Origin: a bacterium | Lineage (GTDB): Bacteria; Electryoneota; Electryoneia; Electryoneales; Electryoneaceae | Assembly (NCBI GenBank): GCA_963669175.1 | Contig: OY769902.1 | Location: forward strand, 1,216,001-1,280,000 | Direction: 5' to 3' | Length of the DNA: 64,000 nucleotides | Part shown: positions 42,826 to 44,908 of the stretch, piece after piece | Layout: each line of letters opens with the position of its first letter | Position numbering within the stretch: position 1 is the stretch's first letter | Translations under genes and position numbers: made by a program | The notes under the pieces: generated by a model | Database searches by the model: none | The model's input: the letters and a program-made list of their open reading frames with translations, nothing else | What the model was told of the DNA's origin: nothing

Positions 42826-42951
42826 GCGCGTGATAATGAGTGGCGTGGGCGAAAAATGGGACTTTCATGATAAGTAGAGTCAAGGGGAAGACGGAGTTTT
42901 CCCGAGTCCTTTGATTCATCTCTGAACCAGGACGATGCCTAACCTCTTCCT

Positions 42952-43166
42952 CAACGCGTTTTTCCTGACCTTTGCTCGCTCTCGCGTGGGCCGCCAACAG
43001 ACCTTACGGCCAGACATTCATGGTCTGTCTCGGGGCCATATGGCCCGTCACAGAAGATGAAGTTAGGGATCACCCGACCAGCCTCTAAACAGTTTCAAGG
43101 ATGCCCGAAGCATAGTCCCCTGTTTCGTGAGGCCTGGCGGGCAGGTCCGGTTTACAATACGCGTTG
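42952..43166 (-). ncRNA. Predicted bridge/seek RNA of the IS1111-type element (ends approximate)
   Basis: Closing stem CAACGCGU/ACGCGUUG; target-binding loop with guides AGGGGAC (43121-43115) and GAAACUGU (43096-43089); donor-like CAUGAAUGU (43022-43014). Confidence 0.8.
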
Positions 43167-43178
43167 TGGCATAGAATG

Positions 43179-44225
43179 TTAGTTTACAAGTTCTGTTGTC
43201 GTGTCGGCTTGAACAAACGGCGTTCCCCGTCGATCAACCGCCATCAGATACGCTACCAGCTTGCGTGCTACCGCCAAGGTTGCCCGGTTGGGATTGCTGC
43301 GTGCCAGTTCACGGTCATGCACAATCTGCAGCTCTGGATGCCACTGTGGCGCCAGCTTCGCCGCTTCGATCAGTTTCGTCTGCAAATGTTTGTTTCGTTT
43401 CTTGGACAACGGTCCCCGTTTCGTTTTTCCCGCTGATTCCTGCTGCGCACTACACAAACCGCAGTAACTGATTGCCTTGGAAATACTGGCAAACCGTTCC
43501 ACTTCACCCACTTCCAACGCCCATGTCAGCGCGGTCATCACACCAATGCCACGGATCGTCATCAACAACTTCACCCGATCTGCCAACAGCGAATGCGTAG
43601 CCAGCGCCTTAACCAGTTGAAGTTGCAGCGCCTCAAACAGCTCAAGGCCGGCACGATTCATTCGCAACATCTCAACCACAGTGGTCGGAATCTCATCCAG
43701 CGTATCAAGTTCAATGAGCAATTCATGGAAGTAGCGTTTGCCATGTAGACGCCTTTTCGAATACTCAGCGCCCACTTCCATCAGTAATCCGGCCGTCTTG
43801 TTCTTCAGGCTCACGGCATGCCGGACGATTTTGTTGCGAAATCGCAGCACACGGCGTAGCTCACGGATATCTGATGGTGCCATGTAACATTCCGGCAACA
43901 GGTCGATACGGAGCAGATCTGCGATACGTTTGGCGTCATCCTTGTCATTCTTTTTCTTCGCCGCCGTAATCGCCTTCAGCATCGCCGGGTGTGCCACCTT
44001 CAGTGCCGATGCATGCGGCTTCAGAAAATCATAAATCCAGCCTGTAAACAACGTCGCTTCCATCGCCGCCGCCCAGGGAGTCGGTAACTTCGCAACCCAG
44101 TTTGAAAGAGCAGGACGGGTGGATGCAACCATGCCCTGGTCAACTATCTTACCTGCCGACGTTTGAATACAATACGCAATCTTCTTCTTGTGTACGTCCA
44201 GACCGATGTAGTATACTGCCTGCAT
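43179..44225 (-). CDS. IS110-family DEDD recombinase/transposase
   Basis: YIGLDVHK, AMEAT, KNDKDDA (DEDD RuvC-like) and GIG...SYCGL....ESAG (catalytic Ser region); GAGGAGG RBS. Confidence 0.95.
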   Translation of the reverse strand: MQAVYYIGLDVHKKKIAYCIQTSAGKIVDQGMVASTRPALSNWVAKLPTPWAAAMEATLFTGWIYDFLKPHASALKVAHPAMLKAITAAKKKNDKDDAKRIADLLRIDLLPECYMAPSDIRELRRVLRFRNKIVRHAVSLKNKTAGLLMEVGAEYSKRRLHGKRYFHELLIELDTLDEIPTTVVEMLRMNRAGLELFEALQLQLVKALATHSLLADRVKLLMTIRGIGVMTALTWALEVGEVERFASISKAISYCGLCSAQQESAGKTKRGPLSKKRNKHLQTKLIEAAKLAPQWHPELQIVHDRELARSNPNRATLAVARKLVAYLMAVDRRGTPFVQADTTTELVN

Positions 44226-44908
44226 GCCAACCTCCTCGTGTAAGTACTACGGGTAACCTCGTGTTACGCCTTTAACACAAGTTAGCCCGACATGTGTGCT
44301 GCGTCGAGGTTGGCTGCTTCTACTTATGCATTATAACAGTTTCCTTTTCGTGGTTCAGAATGCAGGACATTATATCCAATGATTTTGAAAAGGAAACTGT
44401 ACCGAATTTTTCGCCTGTAATCGTTGCATGTTCCTGCGCGGAAAAATGCTGGGACAGTTACCTTTTTCGCAACAAGTTTCTCAAGCTTATCAAGTCAATA
44501 GCACTGTCATACAGTATCAAGACTGTCAACCAACCTGCCAGCGAAAACGAGTAACAGTCCCCATTTTTCAATTATAGCTTCCTGTTCCCGGTGACAAAGT
44601 TTGCGTGGCCCGATGCACACGTGAGACTGGTTGAGTTGTTGGTGTTGCTTGGATACTGTGATACTGCAATGACCTGTAACACAAGTACGAGTGGATCGGG
44701 ACTGAGCAGAAAACACCGGCAAAAGGGTACAGTCACCTTTTCGATTCATTGAATCACGGGATAGCTAACTAAAGCGCGACGAAAAGGAAACAGTCCCCTT
44801 TTGCTGCCAGATTCCTGTTCCCGGTGACATGCTGAAAAGGGAGACCCGGTGATGCGAAGCTCTCCTTCATGCCGTATTTTACGCTGAACGACAACGATGG
44901 GTTGAAGC

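Follow-up and report, generated by a model that had tools for sequence, protein, structure and literature searches.

The stem-loop at positions 43074 to 43141 (minus strand) of the window, which here means the whole 64,000-nt stretch that was analysed (GenBank assembly GCA_963669175.1, contig OY769902.1, positions 1,216,001 to 1,280,000, from a bacterium of the Electryoneota), is, with a probability of about 90%, the target-binding loop of a bridge RNA or seekRNA that an IS1111-like insertion sequence (IS) of the IS110 family carries in its 3' non-coding region. The original prediction, made from the letters of the window, had proposed such a loop, and the minus-strand text that it quoted is present at 43141-43073, one base off the interval it gave (43073-43140). 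The evidence comprises the anatomy of the element, the identity between the guides and the flanking DNA, the abundance of the target site, the conservation and covariation of the RNA, and the covariation of guides with targets, each of which was observed directly.

The module consists of an outer stem, an internal loop that carries two guides, and an inner hairpin (U-AUGC-UUCGG-GCAU, 43101-43114, minus strand). The left target guide, GAAACUGU (43096-43089), is identical to the top strand of the left flank plus the GT core (44343-44336) at 8/8 positions for both full copies of the element, as had been claimed for the left half and core of the empty site, and would pair with the bottom strand. 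The right target guide, AACAGGGGAC (43124-43115, minus strand), is complementary to the top strand of the core and right flank. Its AGGGGAC portion (43121-43115) agrees with the reverse complement of core plus right flank, GTCCCAT (42862-42856), at the 6/7 positions originally counted, and with that of the second full copy, GTCCCCT, at 7/7; over the extended guide the second copy fits at 9/10. Each guide word is found once in the 1473-nt element on the given strand. The element thus carries two guides that are complementary to opposite strands of the target and that overlap at the core, which is the arrangement found in bridge RNAs and seekRNAs. The 13-mer that the two guides had been said to specify together, GAAACTGTCCCCT, proved to be the site of the second full copy, which sits at GAAACTGT/GTCCCCT (here and below, a slash marks an insertion junction), and each of the five left junctions of the genome has the form A[AG][AG]CTGT. 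The expectation that other genomic copies would occupy the same motif was therefore borne out at 5/5 left junctions, with the predicted right half at the second copy.

The insertion sequence itself spans 42863-44335 (minus strand, 1473 bp) and has the GT core at both boundaries. Besides this copy, the host genome, a single 5.45-Mb contig, carries another full copy and three left-end fragments. Between the full copies there are 5 differences in 1473 nt, all within the transposase gene; the copies are 99.7% identical, their 348-aa frames are intact and their non-coding regions are identical. On one side the element is bordered by the left half of an interrupted host repeat plus the core, GAAACTGT (44336-44343, minus strand), and on the other by the core plus the right half, GTCCCAT (42856-42862, minus strand), which is one change away from the common GTCCCCT. 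GT is present at both element junctions and only once in empty sites (82 copies of GAAACTGTCCCCT), which corresponds to the site-specific insertion of IS110-family elements, with no target duplication past the shared core dinucleotide. The right end (42863-42883, minus strand) contains a candidate -35 box, TTGACT (42878-42883), and the subterminal inverted repeat CTACTTAT (42870-42877), while the left end (44320-44335, minus strand) contains TATAAT (44330-44335) and the subterminal inverted repeat ATAAGTAG (44320-44327). These 8-bp repeats are perfect, lie 8 nt inside the left tip (ATAAGTAG) and 7 nt inside the right tip (CTACTTAT), are kept in relatives, and fall within the 7-17 bp range of the IS1111 group. 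Also as in that group, the longer non-coding region is downstream of the transposase gene (316 nt, against 110 nt upstream), and the match to the RNA covariance model described below is located there, in agreement with the earlier proposal of a downstream IS1111-type guide-RNA region. An empty orthologous site was sought in a same-genus genome, in which none could be shown; this assembly is fragmented and has the flanking genes on separate contigs.

The genome contains 82 exact occurrences of the predicted 13-mer, compared with 0.16 expected from composition, and 198 and 409 occurrences with up to one and up to two mismatches, respectively. In the window there are 7 matches with up to two mismatches (1.65 expected) and 4 perfect sites that are unoccupied. 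The 13-mer forms the middle part of a hairpin-type repeat, GGAAAAGG-N9-CCTTTTCC, of which there are 131 exact copies and 412 copies with up to one mismatch per arm. Its 9-nt loop comes in few variants; ATCCCGTCC is represented by 94 copies, and AAACTGTCC, the variant read by the guides, is the second commonest with 77. Only 24/412 hairpins are located within open frames of at least 200 aa, which span 83% of the genome, and the repeat was therefore assigned to the repetitive extragenic palindromic (REP)-like families: it is a short imperfect palindrome, high in copy number and extragenic. The element inserts within the hairpin loop of this repeat, in one orientation. As a separate observation, the element is located at the edge of a cluster of host palindromes with several loop variants (window 44336-44830). 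Genome-wide, the commonest spacing between palindromes is 106 nt (31 cases), followed by about 140 nt and 62-63 nt, which suggests composite units similar to bacterial interspersed mosaic elements (BIME) or miniature inverted-repeat transposable elements (MITE).

Conservation of the RNA was assessed in relatives found by a scan of one genome per species, in which 568/599 candidate homologous stretches were confirmed and 80 loci were kept. Most of these loci come from Desulfobacterota assemblies and some from assemblies labelled Bryobacterales, Nitrospiria and others; together with the two copies from the host genome they form a set of 82. The same module could be parsed in 72/82 loci, showing, as predicted, a loop that is conserved in homologues while its guide positions vary. 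Five loci had no loop parsable by pattern (L027, L040, L053, L067 and L069, the last two being recovered later with the covariance model), and five were left out because the pattern had matched spuriously in elements that are disrupted or interrupted (L038, L074, L082, L084 and L085). The common scaffold reads, in order, outer stem, a variable stretch leading into GGGAC-U, a hairpin of variable sequence, a variable stretch leading into UGU-UU, and the return strand of the outer stem. Among 63 distinct sequences, evaluated with RNAalifold and an explicit pair count, 9 of the 12 pairs of the outer stem and 7/7 pairs of the inner hairpin were changed on both sides. Two-sided changes were thus found in 16/19 pairs overall; 95.8% of cells were paired, compared with 85.4% in shuffles, and 0/500 shuffles equalled the observed stem-pairing values. 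Sliding the partner strand by 1-3 columns reduced the paired cells to 35-42%. U-G and G-U pairs are frequent (e.g., 23 U-G at columns 15/103) and are compatible with the transposase strand only.

A hold-out covariance model, made from 62 relatives with the window sequence excluded, gave a single match in the window, at 43071-43143 on the minus strand (49.7 bits, E 2.6e-8), and two matches genome-wide, one per full copy. A search of Rfam gave three chance-level matches to microRNA and psbNH models (E 0.18-0.43, far under the gathering scores) and no bridge-RNA family. Folded alone, the 73-nt stretch reaches -32.3 kcal/mol (z -3.54, with 0/200 shuffles as stable), and the fold of the whole non-coding region has a z of -2.10. 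The outer stem and inner hairpin of the predicted structure are thus supported by covariation among the 63 sequences, whereas the large internal loop, when open, is the consensus of the family and not the minimum-energy fold. A further helix is predicted by RNAalifold between two invariant and mutually pairable words, GGAC, with which the right guide ends, and GUUU, with which the left guide ends (alignment columns 27-30 with 98-101). Because there is no variation in its columns, this helix is neither supported nor excluded by the alignment; as a model, it may keep the RNA closed as long as no DNA is bound.

If the loop is read correctly, its guides should follow the insertion sites of the relatives. 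Element ends of the relatives were found by comparison of copies within a genome and by conserved end motifs, the family ends being GT/TTGAATGCATAAGTA ... ACTTATCATGGAT/GT. In a permutation test, the 12-nt flank (core included) was scored on its own loop strand and against the loops of other guide classes. On the right side the own flank matched at 8.17/12 positions, compared with 6.99 for permuted pairs (41 classes), and on the left side at 8.06/12, compared with 6.43 (44 classes); 0/20000 permutations equalled the observed value on either side. By position, the left guide is invariant at positions 1-3 (UGU), matches its own flank at positions 4-8 with frequencies of 0.68-0.90 (0.26-0.39 for other flanks) and shows no signal at position 9. 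Positions 1-5 of the right guide (GGGAC) are near-invariant both as guide and as flank, and positions 6-10 match the own flank at 0.48-0.70 (0.26-0.43 for other flanks). This position-wise signal delimits the guides of the element as GAAACUGU (8 nt) and AACAGGGGAC (10 nt), so the left guide of 8 nt stood as originally drawn, whereas the right one, drawn at 7 nt, had to be lengthened to about 10. With GGGAC and UGU fixed across the clade, five truly variable positions are left per side.

Individual relatives were found to be retargeted. L059 carries the guides UUACAGUGGAU and UCAACAUGU and has the flanks ATCCACTGTAC and CTCAACATGT; in L051 the guide GUUAUGAGGC is accompanied by the flank GCCTCATAAT, and in L037 and its copies the guide CUAGGGAC by the flank GTCCCTAG. 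In L067 and L069 the core is GG, not GT; the right guide ends in CC, the left guide ends in GG, and the word AUGAAUGG of the adjacent, probable donor-reading module, described below, matches ...ATGAAT/GG, so that the core switch is mirrored at three RNA positions. Among the relatives, therefore, guides co-vary with insertion sites on a conserved scaffold, as in known bridge RNAs and seekRNAs and as the original prediction had required.

Upstream of the RNA on the same strand, the 348-aa transposase/recombinase gene (43179-44225, minus strand) was identified by Pfam and NCBIfam profile matches. The protein contains an N-terminal DEDD_Tnp_IS110 domain (PF01548; E 2.6e-20, 73.2 bits, cut-off 29) and a C-terminal Transposase_20 domain (PF02371; E 7.5e-17, 61.9 bits, cut-off 21.3), which places it in the IS110 family, and it also matches the NCBIfam equivalog NF033542, 'IS110 family RNA-guided transposase', with 176.6 bits (cut-off 140). 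Its length fits the 330-350 aa of the IS1111 group. Residues D10, E56, D94, D97 and S264 are invariant in 20 clade members; the N-terminal ones were matched by position and spacing only to the catalytic residues of IS621 (D11, E60, D102, D105 and S241; PMC11208158), and S264 is aligned with the serine of ESG in ISCro4. The serine motif, GLCSAQQESA, retains the GL and the serine of the IS1111 motif GL-P----S(T)G but not the P and the final G. Identity to the closest protein relatives is 63-67% (67% for the nearest in the protein collection), and the solved IS621 and ISCro4 chains match the protein at E about 1e-6 in a partial alignment. A plasmid search returned 623 records at E 1e-5, of which one Desulfocapsa record is 62% identical and the other 622 are all below 60%; among the matches listed, those below the first range from 31% down to 23% identity, and no named IS1111 member is found.

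Directly 3' of the target loop, a second module (43010-43068, minus strand) is conserved in relatives and is likely to read the donor ends, judging from its sequence. It consists of a 5' strand, ACUUCAUC (43056-43063), a 3' word, CAUGAAUGU (43014-43022), and between these an inner stem (43050-43053 with 43025-43028) and an apical hairpin (43033-43046), both of which co-vary. CAUGAAUGU agrees with the right end plus core (CATGAAA+GT) at 8/9 positions, and the donor word of the relatives, AUGGAUGU, is identical to their right end ATGGAT plus GT. Elements with the right end ATAGAT (L029, L065 and L080) carry AUAGAUGU, a co-varying G>A change; in L068 this change is present in the RNA but not in the DNA end. 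The consensus of the 5' donor strand, ACUCAAUC, agrees with the reverse complement of GT plus left end at 6/8 positions, with compensating changes in L073, L049 and L071 and a perfect 8/8 in L055; the word was placed in the relatives by an automatic anchor, by which some rows were misassigned. Two candidates for this module were discarded. A closing stem taken from the alignment had only 2-3 constant pairs and failed in this element, and an alternative 5' donor word, UAAC (43062-43065), which would pair with the left-end GTTA, showed no consistent covariation, since relatives with CUAAC keep GTTTG.

The ends of the element also suggest how the RNA could be expressed. TTGACT is separated from the right end by 15 nt, the left end begins with TATAAT, and with the 2-nt core a circle junction would therefore read TTGACT-17 nt-TATAAT, a near-consensus match to a promoter; the counterpart in relatives is TTGACT-17-TTGAAT. 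Junction promoters of this kind have been described for the family (PMC12288879; PMC11187229). In the integrated element, a promoter and terminator scan found none for the RNA strand; one promoter-like and one terminator-like site were found, both on the plus strand, with counts at or under those of shuffles. Among sequencing runs, the stretch was listed for two DNA runs of a single study and for no RNA run.

From these sequence features we infer how the RNA would be produced and processed, how the protein would bind it, how it would pair and which promoter would be used. The RNA would share its strand with the transposase and would probably be a portion of the transposase transcript, with expression driven by the promoter that is formed upon circularisation from the right-end TTGACT, the 17 nt that include the GT core, and the left-end TATAAT. 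In complex with the DEDD/serine recombinase, it would pair through the 5' side of the loop, AACAGGGGAC, with the top strand of GT plus right half-site and, at the left half-site plus GT, through the 3' side, GAAACUGU, with the bottom strand, so that the guides would jointly select GAAACT-GT-CCCCT, the loop region of one host-repeat variant. Insertion would take place at the GT of the repeat loop in a single orientation, while the neighbouring module would read the element's own joined ends.

Several results weigh against the identification as a guide RNA. The right flank of this copy fits its guide at only 6/7 positions (8/10 for the extended guide). Among relatives, the own flank was best or tied-best in just 11/41 classes on the right and 16/44 on the left, which is infrequent because much of both guides is invariant in the clade; the fit is poor at L019, L022 and L041 (5/12, right) and at L073 and L075 (6/12), and the significance of the permutations is overstated because relatedness was ignored. 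When the stretch is folded alone, AAACAG pairs with CUGUUU, since the guides read opposite strands of a near-palindromic site, and the guides thus partly pair together, closing much of the loop. In the donor module, ACUUCAUC fits the left end of this element at 4/8 only, by hand comparison, and no supported closing stem was found in the alignment of relatives. Finally, the serine motif is SA, in place of the SG or TG described for the family; S264, A265 and G266 are, however, invariant in 20 clade members, giving a serine loop of S-A-G and not S-G, and SA is therefore the normal state of the clade.

These points have to be considered together with what else the stem-loop could be. The host repeat is very abundant (412 hairpins), the element is located within a repeat cluster and the guide words are repeat-like, and the loop could accordingly be a captured remnant of the REP-like repeat, with its likeness to the flanks due to shared ancestry and not to a guide function. 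A remnant, however, would be expected to be contiguous, whereas the guide words are on opposite repeat strands and are separated by a conserved hairpin; the scaffold is confined in this genome to the two IS copies, and relatives in other hosts (L059, L051, L037 and L067) keep it with different words that fit their own flanks, all of which leaves this origin scarcely credible. An ordinary role of the stem-loop in the 3'-UTR (untranslated region) of the transposase mRNA, for instance as terminator, stabiliser or antisense-control site, with coincidental guide matches, was judged very improbable as well. Its position 38 nt past the stop codon, its stable fold (z -3.54) and the lack of an Rfam match would agree with such a role, but no T-run follows the stem-loop and the terminator scan is empty there on the minus strand; moreover, 8/8 and 7/7 matches to insertion sites, each present once per element, and covariation across the family would be unexpected of a terminator.

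More weight, though still well on the unlikely side, was given to the possibility that the RNA module is real but belongs to a relic, in which the SA variant or the poor donor 5' strand is inactivating and the guides record a past specificity. Only 2 full copies exist despite 82 perfect sites, three further copies are truncated, the donor 5' strand fits the left end at half of its positions, and the motif is SA in place of SG. On the other hand, the two copies are 99.7% identical, with intact 348-aa frames and identical non-coding regions; the invariance of S264/A265/G266 makes SA normal for the clade, and the junction promoter is near consensus. The interpretation of the stem-loop as the target-binding loop of a guide RNA accounts best for the observations.

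In its architecture, to judge from the sequence, the element matches the IS1111 group as defined in PMC11187229 and PMC11208160. In IS1111-type seekRNAs, the segment that can pair with the top strand has been described as lying 5' of the one for the bottom strand (Siddiquee et al., PMC11187229), which agrees with the guide order found here. Further similarities to the IS1111 elements with seekRNAs in that report (ISEc11, ISPa11, ISKpn4 and ISPst6) are a long non-coding region that follows the transposase gene, subterminal inverted repeats that leave short extensions at the termini, a transposase length of about 340 aa, guides that overlap at the insertion point, and relatives that have been naturally retargeted through changes in the guide segments. 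By comparison, the element described here differs in its identity to plasmid-borne proteins outside its own clade (31% or less among the matches listed), in its serine motif (GL-CSAQQE-SA, compared with GL-P----S(T)G) and in the clade-wide fixation of 5 right-guide and 3 left-guide positions.

IS621 and ISCro4 (PMC11208160, PMC11208158; PDB 8wt6, 9t56) are more distant. They share with the element the same two Pfam domains, aspartate, glutamate and serine residues at comparable positions, and what is probably a two-loop logic, in which one loop serves the target and one the joined ends, with a 2-nt core common to the guides; IS621 also inserts into REP sequences. Kinship is very distant (E about 1e-6, partial alignment), the RNA is located downstream and not upstream, its guides come in the reverse order, GT takes the place of CT as the core, and the donor module looks multi-branch and not like a simple internal loop. 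ISPpu9 and ISPpu10 of Pseudomonas putida (PMC12288879) are likewise RNA-guided, target one position of a species-specific extragenic palindromic repeat, and have orphan and partial copies at such repeats. According to the same text, however, they belong to the IS110 group, with an upstream RNA, without subterminal repeats, with another host repeat and with the core AG.

The kind of system is already known, since bridge RNAs have been predicted in 93.0% of IS1111 elements (Durrant et al.; PMC11208160, PMC12288879) and REP targeting has been reported for IS621 and ISPpu9/ISPpu10 (PMC12288879). A weak search of the literature found no mention of IS1111 with Geobacter, Desulfobulbus, Desulfuromonas or Desulfocapsa, which does not make the clade unpublished; it is far from characterised orthologues by identity, and ISfinder or published supplementary tables may already list members. 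The lineage is common in Desulfobacterota and is also found in Acidobacteriota and Nitrospirota assemblies. It is conceivable, and put forward here only tentatively, that the element represents an uncharacterised, large IS1111-like lineage with an extended core, TGT/CCC, fixed in guides and targets across phyla and with about five programmable positions per side, in comparison with a core of 2 nt in IS621. Either the protein or handshake pairing with the donor module may be what keeps the fixed part of the core constant. Handshake pairing would fit the invariant UU after the left guide, which equals the first two bases of the family left end, and the C after the donor word, which equals the first base of the right half-site. 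If such an extended-core lineage exists, it would strike a different balance between protein-read and RNA-read specificity, and the fixed core would bear on the retargeting range of such enzymes.

The element provides a natural example of a target specificity that can be read straight from an RNA loop, given that the 13-mer predicted from raw sequence proved to be both the second insertion site and a genome-wide repeat. Being populous in anaerobic sediment bacteria, the clade adds scaffolds for programmable recombinases. For annotation, the guides explain the position of the IS in REP-like clusters and predict its landing sites, 82 of them perfect, including 4 in the window.

The three truncated left-end copies in the genome (L003 to L005; C1:1628759-1629068, C1:2995185-2995407 and C1:4172435-4172586) keep the first 310, 223 and about 153 nt of the element, respectively, the last being 92% identical, and are all located at A[AG][AG]CTGT left junctions. 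In L004 the breakpoint is within a GTCC that is common to an internal sequence of the transposase gene and to the right half of the host repeat. This break has the appearance of recombination between an internal GT pseudo-site and a host repeat, and by analogy it may represent a guide-assisted deletion of the 'half-match' kind outlined for IS621 (preprint 10.64898/2026.08.31.748434).

Two further remnants were found in the same-genus genome. L104 (G001, contig 241) consists only of the right end of a related element (77% identity) and starts within the inner hairpin; its left guide is GUAACUGU and its flank begins with ACCCCTTTTC, a repeat-like right half with AC in place of the expected GT. 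L105 is a diverged left end without a match to the covariance model, and both loci are uninformative for guides.

At least 13 copies of a related element are present in one Bryobacterales assembly (L073-L085); behind some of these there are tandem arrays, whose unit of 142 nt or 330 nt contains the right end of the element, and the RNA region is interrupted in several (L074, L082 and L085). The host genome also contains a second, unrelated IS110-family element in 12 copies (L086-L097, e.g., C1:5155397-5156392), of about 1386-1486 bp, with a 378-aa frame that scores 245-248 bits against NF033542. Its left flanks vary between copies, it is not inserted in the loop of the host repeat, and 7 of its copies are followed by a common stretch of about 100 nt that holds two host palindromes.

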